Source of the DNA: a virus
Lineage: Duplodnaviria; Caudoviricetes
Virus record (IMG/VR): IMGVR_UViG_3300027759_000044
Length of the DNA stretch: 64,000 nt
Reading direction: 5' to 3' (one strand)
Shown here one piece after another: positions 37,132 to 64,000 of the stretch. The notes below the pieces were generated by a model. It did no database searches. It saw only the letters and a program-made list of their open reading frames with translations, and was not told where the DNA came from. The translations under genes were made by a program, and so were the position numbers. Position 1 is the stretch's first letter, and each line of letters begins with the position of its first letter.

Positions 37132-38479
37132 AGTTGTATTTGTAAAAAGCGTAAGAGATAGATTAAACACAGTAAGCCCAAGCTTCTGTGCGATGAAATG
37201 GTTACACCAAACATTGTATCTACACACCGGTGATAATCATAGCTGTTATCATCCTAGACCACATCATATCCCGCTAGATGAGATTGCCGTTGACCCAAGT
37301 GCATTGCATAACACTAAGTGGAAAAAAAAACAACGTAAAAAGATGTTAGAAGGTGAGCGTCCGGATGAATGTTACTATTGCTGGAATATTGAAGACCTTG
37401 AAGGAGATCATATCAGTGATAGGATGATACATAGCGCAAGCGATTTTAGTGAACCATTCATTGAAAAACTAGCACAAATGCCATGGGATGCACCTGTTAA
37501 TCCACGTTATTTGGAAGTAAGTTTTGGTAATGCGTGTAATTATCGGTGTGGTTATTGTAGCCCGCAAGCTAGCACAATGTGGATGGAAGAAATTAAAAAA
37601 CATGGTAACTATGATTTAACATACAATCAATATGGTATTGATTTTTTAACATCAGGTACATATTATGGACCTAAAGAAGAAAACCCATATATTGAAGCAT
37701 TTTGGAAATGGTGGCCTAGCTTAAGAAATGATTTACATACATTACGTATTACAGGTGGAGAACCATTAATGAATCCTGGTGCTATGCAGTTCTTTGACTT
37801 GTTAGAGGATGAACCCGCGCCAAACTTAGAAATAACATTGAATAGTAACTTGGGAGTTACATTTGATAGAGTTGATAGATTGATTGAACGTGTAGGATCA
37901 TTAACATCACAAAATAAAATACGTAAGTTTAGTTTTTTTACAAGCATTGAAGGTTGGGGAGAGCAAGCTGAATATATGCGTACAGGTATGAAGTGCGACC
38001 ATTGGGAAAGAAATATGAGAGCTGTTATGAAAACCGGCGCAACTATTAACTTGATGTGTACATTCAATGTATTATGTGTAGCAACATTTGAAAAGTTGTT
38101 ACATAAGGTTATTGAATGGCGTAAAGAGTTTGGTAAACATAGTGTTGGTCTTGATACTCCGTATTTGAAAGAACCACCCCATTGGATGATTAACATATTG
38201 ACACCTGATTTTATTCCATATATGGATAAGACGTTGAAGTTCATTCAGGATAATCCAGAACACTTTCATGCAGTAGAATATGAAAAATTTAAACGTGTTA
38301 CAAATTATATGAAAGAGCATGTGATTAGTGAAGACAAGATCCGCGCTGGACGTAGAGATTTCTATAGTTTCTTTACTGAGAATGATAAACGTTTGGGTAC
38401 GGATTTAATTAAAACATTCCCTGAATATAAAGACTTCTATGATTTGTGTAAGGATGTTTATGACAACTATGATAAATGA
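37121..38479 (+). CDS. Radical SAM protein, tandem paralog of 35704
   Basis: CNYRCGYC, TGGEPLM; shares many blocks with the upstream gene. Confidence 0.9.
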   Translation: MDDRVVFVKSVRDRLNTVSPSFCAMKWLHQTLYLHTGDNHSCYHPRPHHIPLDEIAVDPSALHNTKWKKKQRKKMLEGERPDECYYCWNIEDLEGDHISDRMIHSASDFSEPFIEKLAQMPWDAPVNPRYLEVSFGNACNYRCGYCSPQASTMWMEEIKKHGNYDLTYNQYGIDFLTSGTYYGPKEENPYIEAFWKWWPSLRNDLHTLRITGGEPLMNPGAMQFFDLLEDEPAPNLEITLNSNLGVTFDRVDRLIERVGSLTSQNKIRKFSFFTSIEGWGEQAEYMRTGMKCDHWERNMRAVMKTGATINLMCTFNVLCVATFEKLLHKVIEWRKEFGKHSVGLDTPYLKEPPHWMINILTPDFIPYMDKTLKFIQDNPEHFHAVEYEKFKRVTNYMKEHVISEDKIRAGRRDFYSFFTENDKRLGTDLIKTFPEYKDFYDLCKDVYDNYDK

Positions 38480-39692
38480 AAATAATAAACATTCATGGTG
38501 TGTAAATGCATACCATGCTCTTAGTGCTAACAATGACGGTAGTACTAAAACATGTTGTATGATCGGGGAGGAATACAATAAATTATCTAAAACTTCTAAT
38601 GAATACTACATTGGAGTCAAAAGTATTAAAGAAAACTTTGACTGTGACGCCGCACAAAATCTTAGAGATAATCTTTCAAGGGGTATAAAAGATAATTCCT
38701 GTCGTCTATGTTGGCAAGAAGAAGAAGGCGGGAGAAAAAGTAAACGTCTACGTGATAATGAAAAATACCTACATGCTATTGAATTTGATGGTCAGGCTCC
38801 GTTTACAGGACTTGCTAAGGTAGAATTAAACTTAGGTAACAACTGTAACATTAAATGTAGAACATGTCATCCTACAATTAGTTCTACCTGGATGAAAGAG
38901 GCATTTGATTTGGATCACGCACCCCGCGGCACTACATATAAAACATTTAGTGTAGGTATGAAAAAGTATCACCAACATTATGATGATGATAGCAGTTTTT
39001 GGCCTGATCTTATTGAAAACTTAGAAACAATTAAACAATTTGATTTTTATGGTGGCGAACCTTTCTTAAGCAAAAAGATGTGGGAAATATTACGTATATG
39101 TGTTGAACGTGGATACGCCAAGGACATTGAGCTACATTATAATACAAATGGAACAGTATGGCCTAAAGATATTGAGTTATGGAAACACTTTCGCTCAGTG
39201 AATATTAGCTTTAGCATTGATGGTATTGGTGAACGTTTTGAATATATGCGTTATCCTGCAAATTGGCAAGAAGTTAGAGCAAATATGAAAAAAGCTGTAG
39301 ACTTTAATATTGAACATAATAACTTATCATTAAGTTGGTGTATGACTTTAAGTAGTCTAAACATATATTATTTGCCTGAACTATTAGATGAGTATTACAA
39401 AAACTGGACAAGTATGGGATTCTATTTGAATTTAGTTCATAATCCAAATCATTTCAATATAAGCAAAATGTCACCTGAAGCTAAACAAGCCGCATTAGAA
39501 CAACTAAACAGTATTCCAAAAGAATATGAAAATGCATGGTATCAACTTCCCGGTATTATTGGGTTTATGATGGCCGGGGAATATGATCCCACAACATGGA
39601 ATTATATGCTTAAAACAATAGATAAGCATGACAAATATAGAGAGCAAGATTATGCTAAAACATTTAGTGATTTTTCAAAGGCAATAAGATGA
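38460..39692 (+). CDS. Radical SAM protein with N-terminal Twitch-like domain
   Basis: CNIKCRTC, YGGEPF, YNTNGT. Start moved to ATG 38460 because of AAGGA at 38450-38454; 38469 is also possible. Confidence 0.88.
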   Translation: MTTMINENNKHSWCVNAYHALSANNDGSTKTCCMIGEEYNKLSKTSNEYYIGVKSIKENFDCDAAQNLRDNLSRGIKDNSCRLCWQEEEGGRKSKRLRDNEKYLHAIEFDGQAPFTGLAKVELNLGNNCNIKCRTCHPTISSTWMKEAFDLDHAPRGTTYKTFSVGMKKYHQHYDDDSSFWPDLIENLETIKQFDFYGGEPFLSKKMWEILRICVERGYAKDIELHYNTNGTVWPKDIELWKHFRSVNISFSIDGIGERFEYMRYPANWQEVRANMKKAVDFNIEHNNLSLSWCMTLSSLNIYYLPELLDEYYKNWTSMGFYLNLVHNPNHFNISKMSPEAKQAALEQLNSIPKEYENAWYQLPGIIGFMMAGEYDPTTWNYMLKTIDKHDKYREQDYAKTFSDFSKAIR

Positions 39693-40981
39693 GTGAACAA
39701 TTCTGGAAATCTAATAACTTAATGCAGATGCACATTGAGTTAACTAATTTATGTAACGCAGCCTGTCCTATGTGTGTTAGATTTTATAACAATAGTCCAC
39801 ATACTAGACCTGATTTAGAATTTGGACAAATCACTATTGATAAGTTTAAAAAATATTTCCCACCAGAAATTATTCGTAAATGTAATCTTATTTTATTTTG
39901 CGGCGTGCACGGAGATCCATGTATTGCTAAAGATATGTATGAGATATGTGAATATATCTATGAATGTTCTGAAACTACTGCTGTGCGTGTTAATACCAAT
40001 GGGGGTATGCGTAAAAGTGATTGGTGGGCTAAACTAGGCGCATTGTTTGCTAAACGAAAAAAGAGTTTAGCCGACGATTTTTGGGAAATTATATTTAGTA
40101 TTGATGGGTTAGAAGATACCAATCATTTATATCGTAGAAACGTAGAATGGTCAGCATTGATGGAAAATGTTAAGGCATTCGTTAATGCAGGTGGAGGAGC
40201 ATCTTGGGATTATTTGATATTTAAGCATAATGAACATCAAATACAAGAGGCAAAACGTTTTAGTGAACAGATTGGCTTTAGAGAGTTTATCCCTAAAAAA
40301 GCTTTGGGTGTAAGCTATGATGTTGAGAATAAGTTGACCATCATGCCTGTATTGAATAAAGAAGGTGAATTAGATTATACAATTGAATCACCTGTTAATC
40401 CAGAAAATAGAAACTTACCTAATGCTGATGGCACCTTACCATTAATGTATTGGCCCTTTAAGGTTGATGAATATCGCAAACTTAAAGATGATAAAGAATC
40501 TATAAGAATGAATTATGATATCAACGCTGATTCAATTTATCAGACTGCAATTAATAATAAAAACTTTGATGAGCAAGATTCATGTAGTATTATTTGCAAA
40601 TCCAAGACACCATTAGGCGGCAAAGAAATATTTGTTGATAACTTTGGCAGAGTTATGCCTTGTTGTTATATCGGGACACACTTAAATGGTAAATATAATG
40701 ATATTGCATCCATGCAATTATACAATCATATGAATCAATATGGCTGGGAGCATTTTAGTTTAGATACACATACATTAGAAGAAATACTTGATGCCGGACA
40801 CTTAGATAGAGTATTTGCTGATTCATGGAAGAAAGACTCAGTTAAGAATGGTAAATTAGCATATTGTGCTAATACATGCGGTAAGAAATCAGCTATTGAT
40901 AAAATATTTTCACATGAATTGAATGATAAAGCTAGTCAAATGGAAAAGTTTAGAACACAAAATGAACATAGAGTTGATTGA
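39689..40981 (+). CDS. Radical SAM protein with C-terminal SPASM/Twitch domain
   Basis: CNAACPMC, GVHGDP, FSIDGLEDTN; C-terminal FVDNFGRVMPCC...CANTC. Confidence 0.9.
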   Translation: MSEQFWKSNNLMQMHIELTNLCNAACPMCVRFYNNSPHTRPDLEFGQITIDKFKKYFPPEIIRKCNLILFCGVHGDPCIAKDMYEICEYIYECSETTAVRVNTNGGMRKSDWWAKLGALFAKRKKSLADDFWEIIFSIDGLEDTNHLYRRNVEWSALMENVKAFVNAGGGASWDYLIFKHNEHQIQEAKRFSEQIGFREFIPKKALGVSYDVENKLTIMPVLNKEGELDYTIESPVNPENRNLPNADGTLPLMYWPFKVDEYRKLKDDKESIRMNYDINADSIYQTAINNKNFDEQDSCSIICKSKTPLGGKEIFVDNFGRVMPCCYIGTHLNGKYNDIASMQLYNHMNQYGWEHFSLDTHTLEEILDAGHLDRVFADSWKKDSVKNGKLAYCANTCGKKSAIDKIFSHELNDKASQMEKFRTQNEHRVD

Positions 40982-43038
40982 TGGACAGCAAAAAACAGTC
41001 AGGATATAAAAAACTATTTACATTAAAAGTATCTAATCCTAAACCCAAAGTTGATACTGATTTTGATGATAAACATACTAAAGTTATGGCAGCAATATTG
41101 CCATATGCTAGAATTAAACCACAAAAAAACTTAATTGATGTTGCTACTGAGGATATAAGTCGTAAAACAAGTGTAATGTATATGTTATTGCCTCAATGGG
41201 CAAAGATGTTCGCACCCTATAATGTAGCCAGACTTGTTGCCCTAACCAAAGCCGCTGGGTATAGAACCACCGCAGTTGATTTAAATGCTAAAGCAGGACA
41301 AGAATATTCTAAATGGGATATTGACTTTGATCCATGGAGTAGTGCAAGAGAATGGAAATGGTTAGAAAACACATATCATACAGAGCTACATAAACACTTA
41401 GAACCTTTGTTAGAAAAATACTTAGACTATATCGGTGAAGTTAAACCCGATGTTATTGGCTTTAGTATATATTATTGTAACGAAGAACCAACTAAGTGGA
41501 TGGCAAAAGAAATAAAAAAACGTTATCCGAACATTGTTATAATGGTAGGAGGTCCGCAATGTCATCAGAGTTATTGGACACCCATACCTGAGTTTGATTA
41601 CATAGTATCAGGTGAGGGTGAAAAGATGGTGTTAGAGATACTAGAAGAAATAGAATCTGGTGTAAGACCAACGGAACAAAAATGGTTAAGACAAGAAGAG
41701 GGTCAACGATTAAACTTAGATGCATTACCTAGACCTGATTACAGTCATTTCAACTTTAGAGAATATGCAATGCCCAATGGTGCAAACGCAGAACTAAGTA
41801 GAGGGTGTGTAGCTAAATGTGTGTTTTGTAGTGAGACACACTTTTGGAAATTTAGAGGAAGGCAAGCAACATCTATTATAGATGAAGTAAGTGATTTATA
41901 TCACAACTATGGAATTGATGTTATTTGGTTTTTAGATAGTTTAGTTAACGGCAATCTTAATGAACTTAGAGCATTTGCTAAGGGTGTTGTAGCTAGAGGA
42001 TTAAAAATACATTGGACCGGATACGCAAGATGTGATGGTCGTATGGATTTAACTTACTTAAAAGACCTAGCGGATTCCGGATGTTTAAGTTTAAGCTATG
42101 GTATTGAATCAGGATCAAATAAAGTATTAAAAGCTATGGATAAGGGAGTTACTGTTGAAGAAATAGAACAGAACTTAAGAGATGGAACTATAGTAGGAAT
42201 AGAAGCATTCACTAATTGGATTGTAGGTTTTCCGGCAGAAGAACACCAAGACTTCTATGAAACACTGACCTTAATTTGGAGAAATAGAAACAACAATATT
42301 ACAGATATTGCCGGTGGACATGGGTTTACTATTCCTCCGGATACCATTGTAGGACAAGCATCAGAACAATATGGAATCATTAAAGCTTATTACTTAAACA
42401 ATTGGATTAAGGAAGACTTTACCAATAGTAAACTACATAGATTAGTTAGAGTAAAGACGTTCAACATACTATTACACTATCTTGTAACCAAGCTTGATAT
42501 GGGTTGTAGTGGTATGAGACCAACAATTGAATCATTTTATACTCTTAATGTTAAAAACAACACACCACTAGAGATGGAGTTTGAGTCATTTGATTTCAAT
42601 ATAATCAATACAGGTAATAATTTTGCTGATTCATTGATGAATGAAATATGGCCTTTGTTAAGACTGTTTTGGAAAGCACAGGGCGCATATGATATTGAGA
42701 TTATATTTGACCCAGCCCAGGATTTAAATGAGTTTAGTGATAGATTAGCAGGAAACTATTCAGCTAGTTATAAGTTCTCAATAGATGAGAATGGTAATTG
42801 GAATGCTAATTTTGATTGTGTTTATAAGCAAGATGATAATGCATGGAGATATTCGGATTATTCGAGAGCAGATTCAGTTGCAGCCTCACGTGCTAGACAA
42901 TTAGCAGAACCAGACTCTGGTGGCATAAGTACCTGGACAATGGAAAAATATAAAAAACATATGACATTGTTAGATGAGTTAATATTAGTAGATTTCTCAT
43001 TTGAACACAAATACATTAGTAATGGAATTTGGAACTAA
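40981..43038 (+). CDS. Cobalamin-binding (class B) radical SAM protein
   Basis: B12-binding-like domain PDVIGFSIY...VGGPQ...VSGEGE, then SRGCVAKCVFC, YGIESGS, WIVGFP. ATG 40981 overlaps the upstream TGA. Confidence 0.88.
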   Translation: MDSKKQSGYKKLFTLKVSNPKPKVDTDFDDKHTKVMAAILPYARIKPQKNLIDVATEDISRKTSVMYMLLPQWAKMFAPYNVARLVALTKAAGYRTTAVDLNAKAGQEYSKWDIDFDPWSSAREWKWLENTYHTELHKHLEPLLEKYLDYIGEVKPDVIGFSIYYCNEEPTKWMAKEIKKRYPNIVIMVGGPQCHQSYWTPIPEFDYIVSGEGEKMVLEILEEIESGVRPTEQKWLRQEEGQRLNLDALPRPDYSHFNFREYAMPNGANAELSRGCVAKCVFCSETHFWKFRGRQATSIIDEVSDLYHNYGIDVIWFLDSLVNGNLNELRAFAKGVVARGLKIHWTGYARCDGRMDLTYLKDLADSGCLSLSYGIESGSNKVLKAMDKGVTVEEIEQNLRDGTIVGIEAFTNWIVGFPAEEHQDFYETLTLIWRNRNNNITDIAGGHGFTIPPDTIVGQASEQYGIIKAYYLNNWIKEDFTNSKLHRLVRVKTFNILLHYLVTKLDMGCSGMRPTIESFYTLNVKNNTPLEMEFESFDFNIINTGNNFADSLMNEIWPLLRLFWKAQGAYDIEIIFDPAQDLNEFSDRLAGNYSASYKFSIDENGNWNANFDCVYKQDDNAWRYSDYSRADSVAASRARQLAEPDSGGISTWTMEKYKKHMTLLDELILVDFSFEHKYISNGIWN

Positions 43039-43041
43039 ATA
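43035..43041 (+). promoter_or_regulatory. Late promoter element CTAAATA, 5 nt before ATG 43047
   Basis: CTAAATA-TCACT-ATG, overlapping the upstream stop. Confidence 0.55.
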
Positions 43042-43046
43042 TCACT

Positions 43047-43808
43047 ATGGATAAAATAGATATAGATTCATTTGATAGGATAGTAGCGTACGGTTGTAGT
43101 TATACTGCAGGTGATGAGTTGTTAGACCATGAAATATTAGGTATTAGTTTTGAAGCATGTAATAAATTAAAAAATTCTTATAAAAAATTATATCCTTATA
43201 ATTTTTATAAGAATTTACCAAAAGATGTTTTATATAAAATAGAAACAACCAACCCACAAGTGTCATGGGCCGGACAGTTAGCTAAACAGTTGAATAAACC
43301 TTTTCTAAATAGAGCAAAAGGTGGCTCTGGTATAGATGAAATTTTGTTCACTGTGGTATCTGATAGGACAAATAAAACCATATCGGATAGAGATTTGATT
43401 GTAGTTGGATTAACCTATCCAGAAAGAATACTTCATATAACTGATAACCATATATGTACTTTACATCTAGGTAATCAACATGGCTGGCCGTCGGCCGATA
43501 CACATAAAGCAAGTGTTGAATTATGGAATAATAGTAATACTTTGTTTAACTATTACAAATCATTATTCATCTTAACTAAATTGGGATTAAATATTAAATT
43601 ACAACCAATTTGCATGCCTTCATTTCAGGATATAAATAAAAAACTATGTGATCAGGTTATTATGCCTTTAAGGGATGAAATAGCAGACTACATGTTTTTT
43701 ACGACAGAAACGTTAAATGTAGATTTGCCATACAAGTGTGGTTTTGGACATGTAGCAATTGAGGCTCATATTGAGTTAGCAGACAAAATTCACAAACAAT
43801 ATTTTTAA
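43047..43808 (+). CDS. SGNH/GDSL-fold hydrolase or acyltransferase-like protein
   Basis: Block I AYGCSYTAG, block II RAKGGSG, C-terminal GH. The track start 43029 is TTG; ATG 43047 preferred. Confidence 0.6.
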   Translation: MDKIDIDSFDRIVAYGCSYTAGDELLDHEILGISFEACNKLKNSYKKLYPYNFYKNLPKDVLYKIETTNPQVSWAGQLAKQLNKPFLNRAKGGSGIDEILFTVVSDRTNKTISDRDLIVVGLTYPERILHITDNHICTLHLGNQHGWPSADTHKASVELWNNSNTLFNYYKSLFILTKLGLNIKLQPICMPSFQDINKKLCDQVIMPLRDEIADYMFFTTETLNVDLPYKCGFGHVAIEAHIELADKIHKQYF

Positions 43809-43810
43809 AC

Positions 43811-44641
43811 ATGAGTAATACTTTTAAATTAAACGACATAAAACGAGTAGTAGCTTACGGATGTAGTTATACAGCCGGAGTTGAGTTAGCAGACGCTGAT
43901 TTTATTCCGCATCTTACTTTAGACGAAATTAATGCTGAGAAAAAAGCATTAGGGCAACATCTGTTTTATTCAAAGTATCCTGCGGTACTGTTTCAAGCTC
44001 CTCCGGAAAAGAAACAACTTGAGTATAATAGGGCCTGGCCAAAACATTTGATTAATTATTTAGAACTGCCGTTAGATTATTTAAATCGTTCAATTGCCGG
44101 GGCATCAATGGAAGCGATCGTATTTGCTATAGAACATGATTTACACAATGGCATAATTAATGATGATGATTTGATAGTAGTAGGTGTAACTAGCGCAGAT
44201 AGGATATTAACAATTAATGATGAAGGCTCGCCTAGTAGCCTAGTATTACATGATTTAGATTCTAGATGGACTAGCCAAGAGTTTAGAAAAATGTTTACTA
44301 TGGAAATTGCTAACGATCATTGGTTATTATACAATTGGTATCGTTCAGTAAAGTACATTGATATGTTATCAAAAACACTTAACAATAGGATATTACAAGT
44401 ATATTTACACACCAATGATCAGGCCTATAAAAATGTATTCAATGTACATAATAATGAATTTTTAAACATAATCAATTCATTGGAAAATATTGAATCAATT
44501 TTGGATAAAGATTTGTCTTTTGGTAAGGTAGAACCATATTGGAGTCATAAAACAGAACACGGCTTTTATCATCCTTACGAGATTCTACATAAAAATTTAG
44601 CTAAGATATTAGCAGAAAAAATTAAAGAAAAATATATATGA
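43811..44641 (+). CDS. SGNH-fold protein, tandem paralog of 43047
   Basis: AYGCSYTAG, RSIAGAS, FYHP. Confidence 0.6.
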   Translation: MSNTFKLNDIKRVVAYGCSYTAGVELADADFIPHLTLDEINAEKKALGQHLFYSKYPAVLFQAPPEKKQLEYNRAWPKHLINYLELPLDYLNRSIAGASMEAIVFAIEHDLHNGIINDDDLIVVGVTSADRILTINDEGSPSSLVLHDLDSRWTSQEFRKMFTMEIANDHWLLYNWYRSVKYIDMLSKTLNNRILQVYLHTNDQAYKNVFNVHNNEFLNIINSLENIESILDKDLSFGKVEPYWSHKTEHGFYHPYEILHKNLAKILAEKIKEKYI

Positions 44642-45861
44642 AAAAAGAAACCTTTTGTTCCTTACCGTTTAGTGCATTATTCTTAGGAAGTGATGGTGGT
44701 GTAAGACCCTGTTGTTCATTACGAGGAGAGCTAGGTAATATCAATGATAATTCAATTGAGGAAATTATTCACGGGAAAATTGCTACTTCTATTAGACAAT
44801 CCATTATTAATAATGAGATGCATTCTATGTGTAGCCAATGCCAAGAATTAGAGTCCAGAGGCGCTAGAACAGAACGTTCAGGTACTATTGAAATGTTTGA
44901 CAAGTTTAAAGATTATACCGAAAAAGACTTTTTATTAGAAAAACTTGACCTACGTTGGAGTAATACTTGTAACTTAACATGTAATTATTGTTATGAATAT
45001 TTTAGTTCTAAATGGGCAGAAATTAAGGGTATTAAAGTAAACGCAAATAAAGAAACAGCAGAAGAAAAGGTATTCTCATTCATTGAACAAAATTTACAAG
45101 ACAATCCAAACGTAAGATTTAATGTTAACTTACTAGGAGGCGAACCTTTATTACAAAAACCTAACTCTAGGCTTATTGAGTTAATTAAAAACAATTCAGA
45201 TATATACATTTTGACTAACTTAACAGTACCTCTAGAAACTAATAAAGTAGCAAATTTACTGTTAGAAGGTAATAATGTTGCATGGGGAATTAGTTTTGAG
45301 ACAATAGGTAATAGATTTGAATATGTAAGAAAAGGTGGAGATTGGAACCAGTTAGTTAAAAATCTACGATATTTAAATTTAAACAAGGTTAAGCACATTG
45401 ATTCTCATCCTTTATACTGTGTGTATAGTGCGTTTAATTTAGTAGAATACTTTGAGTTTTTAGGAGAAGAAGGATATTTTCATAAACAATATTGGCAAGT
45501 ATTACAGAATATTCCCGGTCTTGATGTATTTCAATTACCTTACCCAATGAAGGTTAAAGCTATTAAAGAGTTAGAGACATGTTTTAATCGTTATGAAAAT
45601 ACTTTTGATTTGTCATTACTAAGATCCGTTCATAGTGGATTAGTAAGTTCTATTGACAAACAATATTGGGATAGTACCGCATGTTTTACATGGCTTAATG
45701 ATTTAGATAAATCTATACCTGGTCAAAAACAATCATTTATTGATAATTGGGCAGAATTGTATGATGATATGTTATCTACTTATAATTGGCTTACTGATAG
45801 TAATGGAAATATGAATCCTAAAACAGAATATGAGAGACCAATCTATGTTAGAAAGATATAA
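44638..45861 (+). CDS. Radical SAM protein with N-terminal Twitch-like domain
   Basis: FCSLPF...DGGVRPCC...CSQC, then CNLTCNYC, LGGEPL. Confidence 0.9.
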   Translation: MKKETFCSLPFSALFLGSDGGVRPCCSLRGELGNINDNSIEEIIHGKIATSIRQSIINNEMHSMCSQCQELESRGARTERSGTIEMFDKFKDYTEKDFLLEKLDLRWSNTCNLTCNYCYEYFSSKWAEIKGIKVNANKETAEEKVFSFIEQNLQDNPNVRFNVNLLGGEPLLQKPNSRLIELIKNNSDIYILTNLTVPLETNKVANLLLEGNNVAWGISFETIGNRFEYVRKGGDWNQLVKNLRYLNLNKVKHIDSHPLYCVYSAFNLVEYFEFLGEEGYFHKQYWQVLQNIPGLDVFQLPYPMKVKAIKELETCFNRYENTFDLSLLRSVHSGLVSSIDKQYWDSTACFTWLNDLDKSIPGQKQSFIDNWAELYDDMLSTYNWLTDSNGNMNPKTEYERPIYVRKI

Positions 45862-47106: not shown

Positions 47107-47453
47107 CCGTATTTCTTAACTTCTTTAACCGGATCATTAAGTAGTTCGGCCATTCTATTTTTTAATACATAACGTTCACTTAATATATTACGAACATGTA
47201 TGGCTCTACGACCTACTTCTTCTAAACTATATTTGTGTTCTACTGTATACTTTTTGAAATCGTCCTCAAGTTCCCAAACTCTAGCATGTACCTCATATAG
47301 TTTATCTAAATCTTCTTTGATTAAATTAAAATTTAACTCTTTAAGTTGGTCAGTGTAGAAGTCTAGTTCTTCTTTATTATCACCTAGCTTTGCAAACTTA
47401 AGTTTGGCAATACAATAACGGTCTACTAGTTCAATTACTGGAAATTTATACAT
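47103..47453 (-). CDS. Small helical protein, DUF6165-like
   Basis: P-x-x-ELVDRxxIxKLK N-terminus, LYEVHARVWELEDDF, and RYVLKNRMAELL resemble DUF6165 proteins of glycan loci. Confidence 0.5.
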   Translation of the reverse strand: MYKFPVIELVDRYCIAKLKFAKLGDNKEELDFYTDQLKELNFNLIKEDLDKLYEVHARVWELEDDFKKYTVEHKYSLEEVGRRAIHVRNILSERYVLKNRMAELLNDPVKEVKKYG

Positions 47454-48642
47454 TTGTTATTTCTACCTTAGGAAAATATTTTAAGAAAACATCTTGTTTC
47501 ATGTTACGTATAGTTTTTATTCTATTACTTATCTCAGTAAAGAAGTTCCAAGCTAATGGCATAAACACTATTTTATCATCTATATTAAACTCTGCTATAG
47601 CATCCGGCCCTTTAATTAATATCTTAGTGCCCGGAGTATATAAGTTTTGTTTTAACGGATTATCATCAATGATTAAATCTAACTGAATGTCTATATAGTT
47701 TAATAATGTATTGCCCTTTGCGGCCGCGCCATATCCTACTATCTTATATCCTTGTTGTTTGTATGTTAACAGCGTTTGTTTAAGGGTAACTATATTATTA
47801 TTCACGTTTTGTACCCATTTGGTATAAGTATCAACCTTATGTAAAGCTGACTCGGTCGTTAATGCATTTTGTATGTTAAACGGTTTACCCTCAATCTTGC
47901 TGAACACAAATACATAACTGGTACCATGAATGGGAGTGCGTATAGCTTCAACCAAATATAATCCTGCTCTCTTTGCTAATTTATTCATGCTATTGATATT
48001 AAAATAATTAACATGCTCATGGTAAATAGTATCAAACTCATCATTGAGTACCATATTAGCCTGACTAGTTTGTACAAACAATTTAGTATGATTGCTCATA
48101 AGTTCACGGCAGTTGATTAAAAATTCTAAAGGATTTGGATTATGTGCCATTACATTTTGAGCTGTTATAGCATCAAATCTACTATTCAACTTGGATAATA
48201 CTTTATCATTAAAAAAATCACAAATTATTGTATGATTCTTTGAACTAGTAGGATAGATATTTTCTGCTGGATCAACTCCCCACGTATCATATCCTAATGT
48301 TTTAAAACAATCTAATTGCGTACCGTCATTGCATCCTATATCTAACACCCGATTGTTAAGCTTAGTGCAATATTCATTAACATAGTTAGCAAACCAGTTA
48401 GAATAGTCTTTTAATGTATTGCTAGTACCACTAACATATAGATAGTTTTTATATATTAATTCAGGGTCAACTATAGTAGTTAATTGGAGGTGAAGGCAAT
48501 CTAAGCATAGATTGACACCTAACGGGAATGTTAGTTCATCTTCATCTTTAGTGGATAGATAGCTATTAGCTAAAGGTTGTTTCCCTAAATCTAAAGATGG
48601 GGTTAAGTTATGTGACCCGCAAGCCAAACATGTATTATTCAT
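47446..48642 (-). CDS. NDP-hexose C-methyltransferase (SAM-dependent)
   Basis: N-terminal Zn site CLACGS...CLDC, VLDIGCNDG, DTIYHEH, C-terminal YGAAAKGNTLL. Confidence 0.85.
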   Translation of the reverse strand: MNNTCLACGSHNLTPSLDLGKQPLANSYLSTKDEDELTFPLGVNLCLDCLHLQLTTIVDPELIYKNYLYVSGTSNTLKDYSNWFANYVNEYCTKLNNRVLDIGCNDGTQLDCFKTLGYDTWGVDPAENIYPTSSKNHTIICDFFNDKVLSKLNSRFDAITAQNVMAHNPNPLEFLINCRELMSNHTKLFVQTSQANMVLNDEFDTIYHEHVNYFNINSMNKLAKRAGLYLVEAIRTPIHGTSYVFVFSKIEGKPFNIQNALTTESALHKVDTYTKWVQNVNNNIVTLKQTLLTYKQQGYKIVGYGAAAKGNTLLNYIDIQLDLIIDDNPLKQNLYTPGTKILIKGPDAIAEFNIDDKIVFMPLAWNFFTEISNRIKTIRNMKQDVFLKYFPKVEITNV

Positions 48643-49748: not shown

Positions 49749-50579
49749 ATGAGCCTTGCCAAATTAAATACCTTAATGTCTGATAACATAGATGATTTTA
49801 AAAAGTTTAGCATAGTTGCTACACGCAAAGATTTGTCTATTCAAACCGATATGAATGTACACTATTTTAGTCCATTAGACTATACACATAGAGAAACATG
49901 GAACTATGAAGATTTTAGTTACGATATATCTAAGTTAGGGTTTAGAGACAATTCAAATATTCCATCTGATATAGATATAGCTGCATTTGGTTGTAGTTTT
50001 ACTTTTGGTCAAGGTCTACCTAAAAATGTGTTATGGCATCATTTATTGGGAGATAGTTTACAACTATCTACGTATAACTTTGGGCAGCCTGCCGCAAGTG
50101 TAAAAACAGTATTAGATATATTTTCGTTAACGTGTAATCATACTAAAATAAAACATGCTATTTTTTTACTCCCACCATTTTTTAGATTACAGATAGCAAG
50201 CAAGCATAAGCATTCAGACAATGTTGAATTGATTCCTATAATACCTAATTATTCTAGTAATTTGGAAAATTCATATATGTTAGATGCGTCGGCAATTTAT
50301 AAATCATTGCCCAACGAAGAATTATGTAAAAATTTCAAAGATAATGTATATCTTATGGAATATATTGCTAAAAAAAATAATATTAAAATTTATTATTCTT
50401 CATGGGATAATTCAACGTATGAGATATTGCTTCAAATGAAATTTAAAAGTGCAATATTGTTACCAAGATGGATTGATTATACTACACCTGAGTTAAAAAG
50501 TTTGGCAAGAGATATGTTACATCCCGGACCGTCAAATCATTTGAAATGGGCTGAAGAAATTAAACCTTATATAATATAA
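49749..50579 (+). CDS. SGNH-fold protein (third copy)
   Basis: AFGCSFTFG, FGQPAAS, DMLHPG (DxxH). Confidence 0.65.
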   Translation: MSLAKLNTLMSDNIDDFKKFSIVATRKDLSIQTDMNVHYFSPLDYTHRETWNYEDFSYDISKLGFRDNSNIPSDIDIAAFGCSFTFGQGLPKNVLWHHLLGDSLQLSTYNFGQPAASVKTVLDIFSLTCNHTKIKHAIFLLPPFFRLQIASKHKHSDNVELIPIIPNYSSNLENSYMLDASAIYKSLPNEELCKNFKDNVYLMEYIAKKNNIKIYYSSWDNSTYEILLQMKFKSAILLPRWIDYTTPELKSLARDMLHPGPSNHLKWAEEIKPYII

Positions 50580-52054
50580 TGAACTACATAGGTATTTCAT
50601 CTGGATTCCATGATGCAGCTGTTAGTGTTATAGATGATACTGGCAACATACTCTTTGCTGGGCACAGTGAACGATATAGTAAAAACAAACATGATAAAGA
50701 TATATGTGACGGATTATTAACCGACGCACTATCACATACCAATTATGTGAATTTACAATATCATTACTATGAACGCCCGTGGTTAAAGTCATTGCGTCAA
50801 TTACGTAGTGGAGAAGGTTTTGTTTGGCCAACATGGAATAATTTATTAGGTACTGTATACAATGACATGAGTAAACCTAACATACACACTCATAATCATC
50901 ACTTAAGTCACGCAGCCGCAGGGTTTCAAACAAGTATTTTTCAAGATGCCACTATTGTAGTAATTGATGCTATTGGTGAGTTTGATACTATCAGTATTTG
51001 GGATGCTAGATATATTAATGGAATAGCAAAGTATAAAAAACTATGGGGACAACGATATCCAGATAGTATTGGGTTGTTTTACTCAGCAATGACTAAACGA
51101 GCAGGTCTTAAACCATTAGATGAAGAATATATACTGATGGGTATGGCAGCATATGGTAACACTAGACCTTTGCGAGAAATGTCTAATACTTTAATAGAAT
51201 CTTTTAGCAACCTCACATTCAAACAAAACCTACATGTAGGTGTATCTGATGATTTTGCCAAAGGTGCGGACAATATGGACATTGCACATAGCGCACAATT
51301 GATAGTTGAACAAATGATAATGGCAGTTATTAGTAAAGCACGAATGCTAGGTGGTAGTAGGAACTTAGTGTATGGCGGAGGAGTAGCATTAAATTGTTTA
51401 GCAAATAGATTGTTAGGAGAATATTATGACAACATTTGGATTATTCCTAATCCTGGCGATGCTGGTTCTAGTCTTGGAGCCGCTGCTTTGGGCTACGGTA
51501 AACAGCTTAATTGGATTGATGCTTATCTTGGTCATAATATCCCTGGTGACTACCCTGTTAATAAGTTATTGGATCATCTTGTTACCACTGGCATTGTTGG
51601 TGTGGCTAGTGGTCGTGCTGAATTTGGACCTAGAGCCCTTGGACATAGAAGCTTACTTGCAGATCCAAGAGGATCAGCAATAAAAGATAAGGTAAATGAG
51701 ATTAAACGTAGACAAAAGTTTAGACCATTTGCTCCTATTATATTAGAAGAATATGCTGATACTTACTTTGATATGCCTAAAGGTTTTACTAACAGTCGAT
51801 ATATGCAAGTTATCAGTAGATGTAGAGTACCTGAATTATTCCCTGCTATTGTTCACCATGACAATACCAGCCGTGTTCAAACAGTACCAAAAGACGGGTC
51901 GGGTATTAGAGAACTATTAGAAAAGTGGTATGTGTTAACTGGATGTCCAATGTTGTTGAATACATCATTAAACATACGTGGTGAGCCGATGGTTAATGAT
52001 AGAGCAGATGCTGATAGATTTGAAAAACTTTATAATGTCCCTGTAATTTCATAA
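50579..52054 (+). CDS. Carbamoyltransferase, NodU/CmcH family
   Basis: GFHDAA, HHLSHAAA, VVIDAIGE, GGVALNC, PGDAG, GRAEFGPRALGHRSLLADP, FRPFAP, LNTSLN. Confidence 0.92.
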   Translation: MNYIGISSGFHDAAVSVIDDTGNILFAGHSERYSKNKHDKDICDGLLTDALSHTNYVNLQYHYYERPWLKSLRQLRSGEGFVWPTWNNLLGTVYNDMSKPNIHTHNHHLSHAAAGFQTSIFQDATIVVIDAIGEFDTISIWDARYINGIAKYKKLWGQRYPDSIGLFYSAMTKRAGLKPLDEEYILMGMAAYGNTRPLREMSNTLIESFSNLTFKQNLHVGVSDDFAKGADNMDIAHSAQLIVEQMIMAVISKARMLGGSRNLVYGGGVALNCLANRLLGEYYDNIWIIPNPGDAGSSLGAAALGYGKQLNWIDAYLGHNIPGDYPVNKLLDHLVTTGIVGVASGRAEFGPRALGHRSLLADPRGSAIKDKVNEIKRRQKFRPFAPIILEEYADTYFDMPKGFTNSRYMQVISRCRVPELFPAIVHHDNTSRVQTVPKDGSGIRELLEKWYVLTGCPMLLNTSLNIRGEPMVNDRADADRFEKLYNVPVIS

Positions 52055-59684: not shown

Positions 59685-59706
59685 TTGTCACTAATTTGTC
59701 ACATAT
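59685..59706 (+). promoter_or_regulatory. Pho-box-like direct repeat
   Basis: TTGTCAC-TAAT-TTGTCAC-ATAT: 11-bp-periodic 7-mers matching the PhoB consensus CTGTCAT-A(A/T)A(A/T)-CTGTCA(C/T). Confidence 0.75.
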
Positions 59707-59712
59707 CTCTCA

Positions 59713-59719
59713 ATAAATA
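59713..59719 (+). promoter_or_regulatory. Late promoter element downstream of the Pho-like box
   Basis: ATAAATA-CTAT-ATG(59724). Confidence 0.6.
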
Positions 59720-59723
59720 CTAT

Positions 59724-60566
59724 ATGAAAACATATCGTTCTATTTTTGTGAGTGATGTACATTTAGGTACCAAAGATAGTCAGGCTGATAAGTTAAATAA
59801 CTTTTTAAAACACAATACATGTGATACACTTTATCTAGTAGGTGATATTATTGATGCATGGCGTATACAGCAAAACAAGTGGCGCTGGAAACAAAGCCAT
59901 ACCAATGTAGTACGTAGAGTGTTAGGCCATGCTAAACGTGGTACTAGAGTTGTTTATATCGCTGGCAATCACGATGAGTTTTTAAGACCTATGATTCCAT
60001 ATGATTTTAGTTTTGGTCTTATAGAAATTCATAATCAAATAGAACATATAGGTATAGATGGAAAGCATTATCTAGTCACACACGGTGATTTATTTGATGG
60101 AATTACACGGCTAGCACCTTGGCTAGCATTTTTAGGAGACAAAGCATATGATTTCATTTTATCGCTCAATAGTAAGTTCAATTGGATACGTCATCGTTTT
60201 GGTTTTGGGTACTTTAGTCTTAGCAAATACCTTAAACACAAAGTAAAAAAAGCCATAGATTTTATGTTTCAGTTTGAAAAGAATCTAGCTGGGTATTGTA
60301 AGAAGCGAGGATTTGATGGTGTAATATGTGGTCATATACACCATGCTGAAATAAAAACTATAGATGGTGTCATTTACATGAATGATGGTGACTGGGTTGA
60401 ATCTTGTACAGCACTAGTAGAACATCATGATGGACGTTGGGAAATAGTTACTTGGACTAGGGAGAAGGACAATGTGGGTATTAATAATTCTAGCAGTTCA
60501 CATGAACGACCCAAAGGACATACCGGGACGAGTGGAGTTGACATTTCAGGACAAACTCTCATGTGA
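59724..60566 (+). CDS. Metallophosphoesterase of the LpxH-like/PlcP family (candidate phospholipase C)
   Basis: SDVHLG, LVGDIID, AGNHD, THGD, CGHIHH, NDGDWVESCTAL. The track start 59685 (TTG) lies in the Pho box; ATG 59724 preferred. Confidence 0.85.
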   Translation: MKTYRSIFVSDVHLGTKDSQADKLNNFLKHNTCDTLYLVGDIIDAWRIQQNKWRWKQSHTNVVRRVLGHAKRGTRVVYIAGNHDEFLRPMIPYDFSFGLIEIHNQIEHIGIDGKHYLVTHGDLFDGITRLAPWLAFLGDKAYDFILSLNSKFNWIRHRFGFGYFSLSKYLKHKVKKAIDFMFQFEKNLAGYCKKRGFDGVICGHIHHAEIKTIDGVIYMNDGDWVESCTALVEHHDGRWEIVTWTREKDNVGINNSSSSHERPKGHTGTSGVDISGQTLM

Positions 60567-61378: not shown

Positions 61379-61385
61379 TTAAATA
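61379..61385 (+). promoter_or_regulatory. Late promoter element (TTAAATA) followed by a 5' hairpin
   Basis: Predicted +1 G61391 starts hairpin GTGCCA-TGG-TGGCAC; SD AAGGAG 61421-61426. Confidence 0.55.
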
Positions 61386-61432: not shown

Positions 61433-62080
61433 ATGAGATTAGAAGATTTAGCCGCAAGATTAGTAGCTGTAGAAGCCAAATTAGCAAACCTAACTGGTAC
61501 AACAGTTAATACAGACAGTGCCACAAGCATTGAAGAACTAGACGCAAGACTTTCTGTAGTTGAAGTTCAGGTTGACCAATTAATCATTGAGAAAACAGAA
61601 GCTCACATTGGCGCTATTGTTGCCGCAGTAGCAAATGACGCACCAGTTGACGTAGCAGAAGTAGTTGCATTGTCATCAAGCGTATTCCATGAAGAAGCCG
61701 CTAGCATCGTTACTGATGTTGTTACAGCACAAACTGAAGCTGATCCAATTGTTCATACTGAAGTTGCTGATATTGTTTCAGCCGCTGTCATGGCAGTTGT
61801 TACAGCAGATCCAGAAGTTGTTATTGATCCAGTCGCAATCACAGAAGCTATCATGCAAGCAGTTGCTGATATGCCAGCCCCGACTCCAGAAGTAGCTCAA
61901 CAAGTTGCTGATGCAGTTGCGGAAGTTATCGCTACAGCTACAGGTGTTGAAGCAGTTGCCCCAGAAGTAACACAACAAATTGTGGAAGCAATCGCTACTC
62001 CTGCAGATCCTGCATTAGATGCAATTGAAGCACGTTTGAATATTGCTGAAGCAAAAGTTGATTTCTTGTTGGGAAAGTAA
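61433..62080 (+). CDS. Acidic Ala/Val-rich protein with terminal coiled coils, function unknown
   Basis: Strong SD; 215 aa without Cys, Trp or Tyr; three RLxxhE heptad motifs. Confidence 0.8.
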   Translation: MRLEDLAARLVAVEAKLANLTGTTVNTDSATSIEELDARLSVVEVQVDQLIIEKTEAHIGAIVAAVANDAPVDVAEVVALSSSVFHEEAASIVTDVVTAQTEADPIVHTEVADIVSAAVMAVVTADPEVVIDPVAITEAIMQAVADMPAPTPEVAQQVADAVAEVIATATGVEAVAPEVTQQIVEAIATPADPALDAIEARLNIAEAKVDFLLGK

Positions 62081-62162: not shown

Positions 62163-62186
62163 AAGGGCCCTATAGGGCTCTTTTTT
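62163..62186 (+). terminator. Intrinsic terminator
   Basis: AAGGGCCC-TATA-GGGCTCTT stem-loop running into a T-tract (62181-62186). Confidence 0.75.
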
Positions 62187-62195
62187 ATTGGATAA

Positions 62196-62217
62196 TAGTA
62201 AAACAATTGTCATATTG
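62196..62217 (+). promoter_or_regulatory. Weaker Pho-box-like repeat
   Basis: TAGTAAA-ACAA-TTGTCAT-ATTG; proximal half-site near consensus, distal half degenerate. Confidence 0.5.
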
Positions 62218-62223
62218 CCTAGC

Positions 62224-62230
62224 ATAAATA
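62224..62230 (+). promoter_or_regulatory. Late promoter element (ATAAATA)
   Basis: 7 nt before ATG 62238. Confidence 0.6.
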
Positions 62231-62237
62231 CAGTACT

Positions 62238-63056
62238 ATGAAAAAACTACTACTATTATTATTCGTACTGATTAGTTCAGTTGTCCACGCACAATTACCA
62301 ACTAGTACTGTACCACTACCCGCTGATATTGCCGCAATTAAGAAAGCAAATGTTCTTATTGTGGCAATGACCAAAAAAGATAACCCTCCCTTCTTCAGTG
62401 GTGGCGAGGATGATATCAAAGGTCTTGACGTTGAAATTGCACGAAGAATAGGCGTAATGCTTGGAGTTCCTGTAAAATTTAGACGAGATGCCGAAAGTTT
62501 TGCTGAGGTTGTTGAACAAGTACGAGACGGGCGAGCAGATGTTGCAGTAAGTAAATTATCTGTCACAGCCCCTAGACTACAGGTTGTTAGATTCAGTGAT
62601 CCATATATTAAACTAAGACAAAGTTTAGTTATCAATCGTTTATGGTTAAGTCAAAACAGTCAAGGTAAAGAAACATATCAAGTCATTAGAGATTTTAACG
62701 GTAAGATAAGTTTTATTCGTAACTCAAGCTATGATACATTTGCCCGTATTAATTTCCCTAATGCTGTATTTCTTCCAGAAGATAAGTGGGACGTAATTAT
62801 CGATAAAGTTACACGTGGTGATATCGCAGCCGCTTATCGTGATGAATTTGAGATTAAGAAAATTGCTTTTGAAAAGCCAGATGCGGCAATCACAACAAAA
62901 AGTATTACAATCTCTGATAGCGTGGATAATATTGCTGTAGCAGTCAATCCTAAATCACTACAATTGTTAAGCATTATTAATTACGTTATTAAAAATGAAT
63001 ACAACAACATTGACACTAAAAAGTTAATGGATCGCTACAAAGCTGAAAAGAAATAA
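62238..63056 (+). CDS. Periplasmic amino-acid-type substrate-binding protein (SBP family 3)
   Basis: Signal peptide MKKLLLLLFVLISSVVHA; NPPFF...GLDVEIARRIG...ADVAVSKLSVTAPRLQVVRFSDPY. Confidence 0.85.
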   Translation: MKKLLLLLFVLISSVVHAQLPTSTVPLPADIAAIKKANVLIVAMTKKDNPPFFSGGEDDIKGLDVEIARRIGVMLGVPVKFRRDAESFAEVVEQVRDGRADVAVSKLSVTAPRLQVVRFSDPYIKLRQSLVINRLWLSQNSQGKETYQVIRDFNGKISFIRNSSYDTFARINFPNAVFLPEDKWDVIIDKVTRGDIAAAYRDEFEIKKIAFEKPDAAITTKSITISDSVDNIAVAVNPKSLQLLSIINYVIKNEYNNIDTKKLMDRYKAEKK

Positions 63057-63065
63057 GGACCTAGT

Positions 63066-64000
63066 ATGACAACCGCACATTTAAAATCGTTTTTAACAAG
63101 CCCGTGGACCATACTTGGTTCTATTATAGTGGGCGTACTGAGCGGCGTTTACGCACCTGAGTTCAGCATAAACTTTGACAGTATTGGTAGTATCTATATC
63201 AGCTTACTTAAAGTTGTTGTTCTTCCATTCTTATTAGCAACTATATTAGTTGGTATAATTGGCTTACTACAAAAAGAAGGTAGTCAACAACTAATTCGTA
63301 AAATCATTATTGGTTTTGTGTCTAGTATGTTCTTAGCCGCAATCATTGGTGTTGGTACAGTTCTTGTTACAGGAACTGAAATGACTCCTGAAAAGAAAAC
63401 ACAACTTGGTGTACTAGTTAATACTAAGGATAGTGGAACTGATTTGAACATCACTCTTAAAGAACCAATGCCTATAGCACCAGAAGTTAGTGCTGGTAAA
63501 ATGGCAGAGAAGTTTATTCCAGAGAATATTTTTAATACACTAAACAATGGTGAAAGTTTGAAGATTGTTATATTCTGTTTAATCTTTGGTGTTGCCCTTG
63601 GTCATCTACAAACTGAAGGTCAAAAGATGTTGGTTGAAGTACTTAAAAGCATTCAACAAGCAAGTATCAGCATCTTTAAGTTCTTAAACTACTTCTTACC
63701 AATAGCATTGTTAGCAATGATTGCCGCTCAAGTTGGTAAAGTAGGTGTAGGTATATTCTTAACTATGTTTGACTTTGTGTTCCAGCAATTCATTGGTGGA
63801 CTATTAGTAGTTGCCGCAGGTACTGCTATGATTTGGTGGAGGTCTGGATTAAGTCTCTCCACTGTTATCAAAGAAACTAAAGAAACATTGATTGTTGCTG
63901 TTAGTTCACGTAGCTCTTTAGCTTGCATCCCATACGCACAAGAAGCATTACATAAACTACACTTTGACAAAGGTGGAGTTGAATTAACAGTTCCGTTAAG
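63066..64000 (+). CDS. Dicarboxylate/amino-acid:cation symporter (DAACS, GltP/DctA family), runs off the window end (not in ORF track)
   Basis: SD AAGGA, ATG 63066; open to the end. YISLLKVVVLPF, FIPENIF, IVIFCLIFGVAL, LPIALLAMIAAQV and the HP1 serine motif SSRSSLACIP. Confidence 0.88.
   Translation, partial: MTTAHLKSFLTSPWTILGSIIVGVLSGVYAPEFSINFDSIGSIYISLLKVVVLPFLLATILVGIIGLLQKEGSQQLIRKIIIGFVSSMFLAAIIGVGTVLVTGTEMTPEKKTQLGVLVNTKDSGTDLNITLKEPMPIAPEVSAGKMAEKFIPENIFNTLNNGESLKIVIFCLIFGVALGHLQTEGQKMLVEVLKSIQQASISIFKFLNYFLPIALLAMIAAQVGKVGVGIFLTMFDFVFQQFIGGLLVVAAGTAMIWWRSGLSLSTVIKETKETLIVAVSSRSSLACIPYAQEALHKLHFDKGGVELTVPL

Follow-up and report, generated by a model that had tools for sequence, protein, structure and literature searches.

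A family-3 binding protein and a DAACS carrier in one operon of giant lake phages: a probable binding-protein-assisted secondary transporter

Introduction

TRAP (DctPQM) and TTT (TctABC) systems are secondary transporters of organic acids that depend on a solute-binding protein (SBP) and possess elevator-type membrane parts. A related arrangement has been described in Bordetella pertussis by Jaques et al. (2025), where a periplasmic SBP and a secondary, elevator-type amino acid carrier form the TAXI-GltS system and ABC or TRAP membrane genes are absent (PMC12344293). There, the dependence of the carrier on its SBP was argued from gene coupling and from fused homologs, and glutamate binding was measured (PMC12344293). 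Here, we describe a gene pair at positions 62,238 to 64,000 of a 64,000-nucleotide stretch of phage DNA (IMG/VR record IMGVR_UViG_3300027759_000044, Caudoviricetes; the whole stretch is called the window from here on), in which the gene of a family-3 SBP is followed by that of a carrier of the DAACS family. In the literature that was searched, no paper pairing a DAACS/SDF carrier with a family-3 binding protein was found.

A second described locus of interest is the cysteate locus of Bilophila wadsworthia, which comprises an SDF carrier, CuyB, RidA, and CuyA (PMC11193023). The phage pair likewise belongs to an operon with a racemase gene. On balance, we consider it probable that the two proteins form an auxiliary system of the phage that works as a binding-protein-assisted secondary transporter.

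The binding protein and the carrier

The first gene (62238..63056, + strand) encodes a periplasmic family-3 SBP of 272 amino acids with a Sec signal, as judged from its Pfam match, from an AlphaFold2 (AF2) model searched with Foldseek, and from its motifs. The open reading frame (ORF) matches SBP_bac_3 (PF00497) with an E-value of 3.5e-18 and a score of 66 bits (cut-off 26.4). Its Sec-type signal, read from the sequence as MKKLLLLLFVLISSVVHA followed by Q, is devoid of a lipobox cysteine and leaves residues 20-272 as the mature protein. The AF2 model (pLDDT 90.9) displays the two-lobe class-F fold, and its top Foldseek matches are amino-acid-binding proteins (E ~1e-18); these matches are generic with mixed ligands (Arg, Trp, Cys, and Glu), and the search on this model delivered no ligand call. 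The residues with which family-3 proteins hold an alpha-amino acid are kept, namely the S-x-x-S-x-T-x-x-R motif (S108, T110, and R113), S163/S164, and D202, including the arginine for the alpha-carboxylate (R113) and the aspartate for the alpha-amino group (D202). The gene is under strong purifying selection, with a ratio of nonsynonymous to synonymous substitution rates (dN/dS) of 0.04-0.08 and synonymous sites near saturation.

The stop codon of the SBP gene (TAA, 63054-63056) overlaps the ribosome-binding site AAGGA that serves the carrier gene and is read directly from the sequence (63055..63059, + strand), and the carrier's ATG at 63066 lies 9 nt after the SBP gene. The earlier note on this DNA had pointed to a family-3 SBP followed 9 nt later by a DAACS carrier without any ABC parts in between, which is confirmed by the Pfam families SBP_bac_3 and SDF. 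The carrier frame (63066..64000, + strand) is open to the end of the window, which cuts it after the first 311 of ~425 residues; this fragment covers positions 3-283 of the 387 of Pfam SDF (PF00375; E 1e-43, 150 bits). To complete the gene and its surroundings, 36 related viral loci were retrieved from IMG/VR, of which L001, 95% identical to the window, serves as the reference relative. Here, the gene is whole (L001:10001-11278) and encodes a 425-amino-acid carrier without truncation, matching SDF over positions 3-384 of 387 with 224 bits against a cut-off of 27.9. The carrier gene is also under strong purifying selection, with a dN/dS of 0.05-0.10 and synonymous sites near saturation.

In GltPh, the residues D394, R397, and T398 of transmembrane helix 8 (TM8) bind the amino group and the acidic side chain of the substrate. 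A HMMER alignment to the solved aspartate transporter PDB 9bgz shows that their equivalents are kept in the phage carrier as the motif DMIRT, and alignments A1-A3 show no or almost no variation at the carrier residues D396, R399, and T400. The serine-rich motif of hairpin 1 (HP1) is also present. The Na+-site signature, on the other hand, is lost in the same alignment (NMDGT to NRIGS, N401 to H, D405 to N, and S93 to M), and the carrier thereby departs from the DAACS family in the NMDGT motif of TM7 and in the D405 and N401 equivalents, which in carriers of the GltPh type serve as ligands of Na+ and of the substrate carboxylate. This is a property of the whole clade: NMDGT occurs in none of the ~109 cluster representatives in which the motif could be read, xRxG stands in its place, and the arginine that replaces the methionine of the motif is nearly invariant, being carried by 88 of them. 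An exhaustive profile search placed the nearest nonphage members of the clade at 35-43% identity. Without the canonical ligands of Na1 and Na3, ion coupling must differ from that of GltPh and the EAATs; the manner in which it differs we can only infer.

The extracellular loop between TM3 and TM4 (carrier residues ~105-150, window 63378-63515) bears a clade-invariant D-L-(E/N)-x-x-L motif, of which D126, L127, and L131 are invariant in alignment A2, with a conserved P-x-N-I-F just after it. We regard this loop as a candidate surface for docking of the SBP.

A four-gene operon

In the phage operon, the genes for the SBP, the SDF carrier, a 201-amino-acid protein with one transmembrane helix, and a racemase follow one another in this order and overlap or are closely spaced. 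In L001, the start of the 201-amino-acid gene overlaps the end of the carrier gene, and the gene of the 230-amino-acid Asp_Glu_race protein in turn overlaps the 201-amino-acid gene by ATGA. Terminator-like sites flank the stretch from the SBP to the racemase gene (L001 9105-9124 and 12606-12623), without any further such site on the + strand in between, so the genes appear to form a four-gene unit. The first of these sites corresponds to 62163..62182 of the window (+ strand), an intrinsic terminator that belongs to the gene upstream (61433-62080) and has an 8-bp stem containing five GC pairs and a subsequent T run; as read from the sequence, a new transcription unit probably begins here. All four genes are present in every related phage locus that is long enough (33 among the 36 retrieved), while the flanking genes differ.

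ABC components just downstream, for which the earlier note had asked, were looked for in L001, where the 201-amino-acid protein, the racemase, and a porin are encoded instead. Moreover, four relatives with genomes of 330-350 kb that are 95-100% complete contained no match to the ABC permease family BPD_transp_1 and no match to the ABC ATPase family ABC_tran above the cut-off.

The third protein (201 amino acids) is composed of an N-terminal transmembrane helix and a GAF-like alpha/beta domain (AF2 pLDDT 78.8). Among the best compact matches of its model are chains of the periplasmic domain of the T4 holin T (6PX4, 6PSK, and 6PXE; TMt 0.63-0.68), with ordinary GAF domains scoring alike. A Pfam search gave no holin match for this protein, and its sole match is phrog_31287, to which no function is assigned. 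The gene is probably a phage insertion rather than one for a transporter subunit, because the bacterial versions of the operon are devoid of it.

Bacterial counterparts and the association of the two proteins

The SBP and carrier genes adjoin in all eight bacterial or metagenomic contexts of the clade that were sampled (L037, L038, L047, L049/50, L051, L052, and the Sulfuricella metagenome-assembled genomes (MAGs) L039 and L040), and in L049 they overlap by 4 nt. No ABC genes were found beside the carrier or SBP gene in any of the eight. The PF01177 racemase gene is also present in seven of them, the eighth (L052) consisting of SBP and SDF only. SBP, carrier, and racemase are each ~35-44% identical between these contexts and the phage, and as all three show a similar identity to their phage counterparts, the trio was therefore most likely inherited as a unit. 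We propose that the phage operon was copied from such a bacterial SBP/DAACS/racemase module. A profile search of genome contigs, started from a three-sequence alignment, gave two informative genomes, and of 400 sampled genomes from the class to which the Sulfuricella MAG belongs, 4 contained the SBP subfamily. In L038 (8084-9388), L039 (7801-9255), and L040, a second, paralogous SDF carrier follows the racemase, so that a carrier stands on either side of it. Such double-carrier operons, which begin with the SBP gene, could possibly serve to bring in one enantiomer and to expel the other.

Furthermore, the two proteins occur as single chains. P0235 and P0240 are constructed from a signal peptide, an SBP domain with the signature motifs of the phage SBP subfamily, one transmembrane helix, and an SDF domain. 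Judging from the sequence, such a topology is what would be required for holding a periplasmic SBP domain to a carrier with a cytoplasmic N-terminus. Four metagenome proteins (P0192, P0201, P0216, and P0169) have the opposite order, with SDF first and SBP_bac_3 second, connected by a linker without a hydrophobic helix; the SBP domain of these carrier-first fusions perhaps senses ligands for regulation instead of delivering them.

A complex prediction for the carrier and the mature SBP delivered an ipSAE of 0.51 (median of three runs), whereas the best among three controls scored 0.00. The runs agree in at least 90% of the contacts, and the partner pLDDT is at least 84. Of 80 solved complexes, 58 reached the mark applied to such predictions, as did 2 of 110 mismatched pairs; at an ipSAE of at most 0.60, it was reached by 7 of the 80 solved complexes and by both passing mismatched pairs. 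As the prediction used alignments of our own, these counts apply to it only roughly. The predicted complex lends weak support to an interaction.

An alternative is that the SBP is an orphan that docks on an ABC importer of the host, or has some other role, that the DAACS carrier works alone, and that the two are neighbors only through joint capture. SBP_bac_3 proteins are classically ABC components, the best NCBIfam matches of the phage SBP, although below threshold, are ABC binding proteins, and a binding protein is normally dispensable for DAACS carriers. Two independent proteins, however, hardly account for the adjacency in all eight contexts, for the occurrence of fused SBP-TM-SDF proteins, for the SBP subfamily and the SDF clade diverging together (each at ~40% identity), or for a complex score well above the controls, and we regard this alternative as quite improbable. 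The binding-protein-assisted secondary transporter that the earlier note had proposed thus gains from the conservation throughout the related phages, the bacterial pairs at 35-44% identity without ABC genes, the N-terminal fusions, and the weak complex score.

The racemase and the substrate

The presence of a racemase in an uptake operon is explained most simply if one enantiomer is imported and the other is used. The enzyme displays both catalytic cysteine motifs (CNTAH and GCTE), and its closest solved relatives are the aspartate racemases 3S7Z (E 9e-48) and 1JFL. The NCBIfam model NF052483 (cysteate racemase CuyB, cut-off 190), however, was also passed by all eight module racemases, five from phages and three bacterial or metagenomic, with 203-240 bits (211.7 in L001). 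The substrate is thus likely an aspartate-like acidic amino acid, with the salvage of D-aspartate as the leading guess and cysteate as the second. The earlier note had raised a phosphorylated substrate such as phosphoserine; this suggestion is not borne out, given that the fourth gene encodes a racemase of the aspartate/cysteate type, that the operon contains no phosphatase, and that the carrier keeps residues of the Asp/Glu type.

Cysteate is isosteric with aspartate and would therefore fit the retained arginine and aspartate of the carrier. According to this second possibility, the module imports L-cysteate and the racemase acts as CuyB, making D-cysteate for a D-cysteate sulfo-lyase and thereby providing the cell with sulfur, pyruvate, and ammonium. 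That every module racemase tested passes the CuyB equivalog is in line with it, as is the cuyA neighborhood of B. wadsworthia, which holds an SDF carrier beside CuyB (PMC11193023). Yet no enzyme of the PALP family (PF00291, the family of CuyA) was found in five phage genomes, and the two Sulfuricella MAGs with the module have only four PALP matches, of housekeeping size and none near the operon. The scores for CuyB also exceed the cut-off modestly, and the closest solved proteins are aspartate racemases. We therefore judge a cysteate route to be rather unlikely and keep aspartate, in its D or L form, as the preferred ligand.

The promoter region and a Pho-like box

Upstream of the SBP gene lies ATAAATAC (62224..62231, + strand), which begins 14 nt before the ATG and is predicted to be the phage's own late-type promoter element. 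All five + strand occurrences of ATAAATAC in the window are located 11-26 nt before a gene start, including two before baseplate genes (7852 and 8356). Among the relatives, the sole upstream element conserved in most is ATAAATA(C/T), 12-14 nt before the ATG. In front of the SBP gene, ATAAATAC ends 7 nt before the ATG and no Shine-Dalgarno sequence is present, whereas the baseplate genes with ATAAATAC have leaders of 20-26 nt and a ribosome site; the mRNA of the SBP gene is therefore predicted to be leaderless or nearly so. In L002, L006, L008, L009, L015, and L034, ATAAATA is replaced by TTATGGA(C/G)(A/T)CAT..AATG, perhaps a second promoter class for the operon. A sigma-70 promoter reading (TTGTCA-N16-TACAGT, 9 of 12 positions) was rejected, because transcription would then start within the ORF and because its elements are unconserved in the relatives.

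A PhoB-dependent promoter in E. coli typically consists of two 7-bp direct repeats 11 bp apart that end ~10 bp before the -10 element. Pho-like direct repeats are found at 62197..62214 (+ strand), where AGTAAAA (62197-62203) and TGTCATA (62208-62214) are separated by a 4-nt spacer and stand in register with the boxes of neighboring promoters. Relative to ATAAATA, TGTCATA matches at seven of seven positions at offset -16 and AGTAAAA at four of seven at -27. Two-repeat boxes at the same offsets occur at 59713 (TGTCACT/TGTCACA), preceding the gene of a PlcP-like phosphoesterase, and at 61379 (TGTAACA/TGTCACA), preceding the gene of an acidic protein. Across 78 promoter-like sites of the window and its relatives, repeats with at least six of seven matches fall mainly at -27 and -16, and fewer at -35 and -9. 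The listed TTG start of the PlcP-like ORF (59685) would place its Pho-type box and ATAAATAC in the coding frame (59685-59726), and the true start is probably the ATG at 59724.

The 18-bp Pho consensus of E. coli, on the other hand, has no match within three mismatches upstream of the SBP gene. The repeats are also uneven among the relatives, some of which keep TGTAATA at -27 and others none, and no Pho-like repeats were found upstream of the bacterial versions of the operon. The Pho-like box that the earlier note had described is borne out in part: the half-site TGTCATA is perfect and in register with the full neighboring boxes, the distal repeat has four of seven matches, and the box as a whole is weak and varies between relatives. 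The box, as read from the sequence, would be a real, positioned half-site of uncertain strength, which informs the design of the phage promoter and not the identity of the substrate.

Seen from the promoter alone, one might read the operon as an importer that is induced by phosphate starvation and takes up an acidic amino acid that contains phosphorus (phosphoserine or phosphonoalanine) and so provides this element for phage DNA synthesis. TGTCATA is perfect at the promoter-proximal Pho position and in register with the full boxes on the PlcP-like and acidic-protein genes, and the geometry of the repeats equals the textbook arrangement of E. coli. Against this, only one repeat is good, relatives keep different repeats or none, the bacterial operons lack them, and the operon contains a racemase instead of a phosphatase or an enzyme that cleaves the C-P bond. 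Such a role appears highly improbable to us, and an aspartate-like amino acid remains the favored substrate.

Proposed mechanism

The analysis shows gene content, synteny, fusions, motifs, fold, and selection; for binding-protein dependence, substrate, ion coupling, and regulation, we infer the following scheme. In the periplasm of the host, the secreted family-3 SBP would capture an alpha-amino acid whose side chain is acidic, most probably D- or L-aspartate and possibly cysteate. It would then dock on the outer face of the carrier, which has the elevator-type fold of the glutamate transporters, and hand over the ligand without an ABC pump, as in TRAP, TTT, and TAXI-GltS. The carrier belongs to a large, divergent DAACS clade in which the substrate-holding Asp, Arg, and Thr of TM8 are kept and the Na+-site residues are replaced, with a coupling presumably unlike that of GltPh and the EAATs. 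In the cytoplasm, the two-cysteine racemase would convert what is imported between its D and L forms. The phage appears to have inserted the holin-T-like, one-helix GAF protein into the operon, and transcription would start from its own late-type promoter ATAAATAC, which is accompanied by a putative weak PhoB-like half-site.

Extending this scheme, it can be speculated that the pair represents an undescribed class of SBP-dependent secondary transporters on the SLC1/DAACS elevator fold, in which a fixed arginine replaces the Met and Asp of the Na+ site and in which docking of the family-3 SBP, rather than Na+, primes the HP2 gate. This class and the racemase would have been acquired together by giant lake phages, which, while infecting phosphate-starved hosts, would use them to draw D-aspartate-like compounds out of the dissolved organic matter. 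We put this extended proposal forward tentatively, as a possibility that we ourselves find somewhat doubtful.

Several points weigh against a binding-protein-assisted transporter as described here. The score of the modeled complex lies in the weak band only, and as family-3 SBPs normally serve ABC importers, the phage protein may have an ABC partner in the host. A late-type promoter and a holin-like gene within the operon are oddly matched with a nutrient importer. The SBP domain of the carrier-first fusions would, judging from their sequence, be cytoplasmic, and not every association of SBP and SDF can thus be taken as periplasmic delivery. Finally, the evidence on the substrate is split, with aspartate racemases as the closest solved relatives on one side and the cysteate-racemase call of NCBIfam on the other.

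The phage and its surroundings

The window is a fragment of a giant phage. Its upstream ORFs match baseplate and virion families of PHROG, and the relatives nearest to it are IMG/VR contigs with lengths of 330-350 kb, among them one with terminal repeats. The phage GenBank collection contained no nucleotide match to the window, and its protein matches to the SBP and the carrier are distant (~24% identity) and mostly derived from records of bacterial DNA or from unannotated fragments. In lake metagenomes, the phage copy is very abundant, with hundreds of sequence variants. Metatranscriptome contigs from two lake studies match 62275-62454 in the SBP gene and 63449-63751 in the carrier gene at 99% identity or more. 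These RNA-library contigs span parts of the stretch only and yield no transcript ends, DNA carry-over is possible, and uncovered parts are uninformative; the matches are a hint that both genes are transcribed.

Directly 3' of the operon, and after its terminator, a Gram-negative porin is encoded as a unit of its own (Porin_4, L001:12644-13549), whose best NCBIfam match is the neisserial PorB. Copies at 47% identity are found in L004, L005, L007, and L010. The PorB-like porin points to a putative host of the beta-proteobacterial type.

Elsewhere in the window, a single ORF of 5917 amino acids (11766-29519) directly follows the baseplate genes and presumably encodes a giant fiber or adhesin. At least five radical-SAM genes form a run at 35704-45861, one of them with a B12-binding domain and one with a SPASM domain, and after this run lie a C-methyltransferase gene (47446-48642, - strand) and a Nol-like carbamoyltransferase gene (50579-52054). 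Together, the radical-SAM run, the methyltransferase, and the carbamoyltransferase look like a pathway for the modification of sugars or peptides.

Comparison with known systems

If the proposed function is true, the phage carries an auxiliary system that places the SBP in the periplasm, the carrier in the inner membrane, and the racemase in the cytoplasm, that has a porin gene as its neighbor, and that is wired to the phage's own promoter with a possible input from the phosphate status. In cyanophages, pstS and phoA are controlled by the PhoB of the host and likewise have a Pho-type repeat upstream of a phage auxiliary gene. The operon described here differs from them in having one strong half-site joined to the late-type element ATAAATAC.

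The cysteate locus of B. wadsworthia resembles the phage module in that an SDF carrier adjoins a PF01177 two-cysteine racemase. It differs in that it serves anaerobic sulfite respiration, in that no SBP is reported in Bilophila, and in that its CuyA and RidA were not found in the phage module.

With GltPh, GltTk, E. coli GltP, and the EAATs of the DAACS/SLC1 family, the phage carrier shares the full-length SDF fold, the serine-rich HP1 motif, and D394/R397/T398. Its identity to them is, however, ~25%, it lacks the canonical ligands of Na1 and Na3, and it is paired with an SBP. The SLC1 fold, to which the human EAATs belong, is the best-studied elevator transporter. The rewritten Na+ sites would offer a natural experiment, if the reading is true. 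The phage copy, being small, abundant, and strongly constrained, is moreover a convenient entry point for biochemistry.

TRAP and TTT transporters employ SBPs of other families (DctP/TAXI and TctC) as well as other membrane components, and the phage operon has no small accessory membrane subunit. A further parallel is TAXI-GltS, which also couples an SBP gene to a secondary carrier and has fused homologs elsewhere, so that coupling and fusions serve as the argument in both cases. It combines a TAXI-type SBP with GltS of the ESS family, whereas the phage system, known from sequence and models, combines a family-3 SBP with a DAACS/SDF carrier. SBP-dependent secondary transport has so far comprised TRAP, TTT, and, since 2025, TAXI-GltS; a family-3 SBP acting with an SLC1-fold carrier would, if true, add another class.

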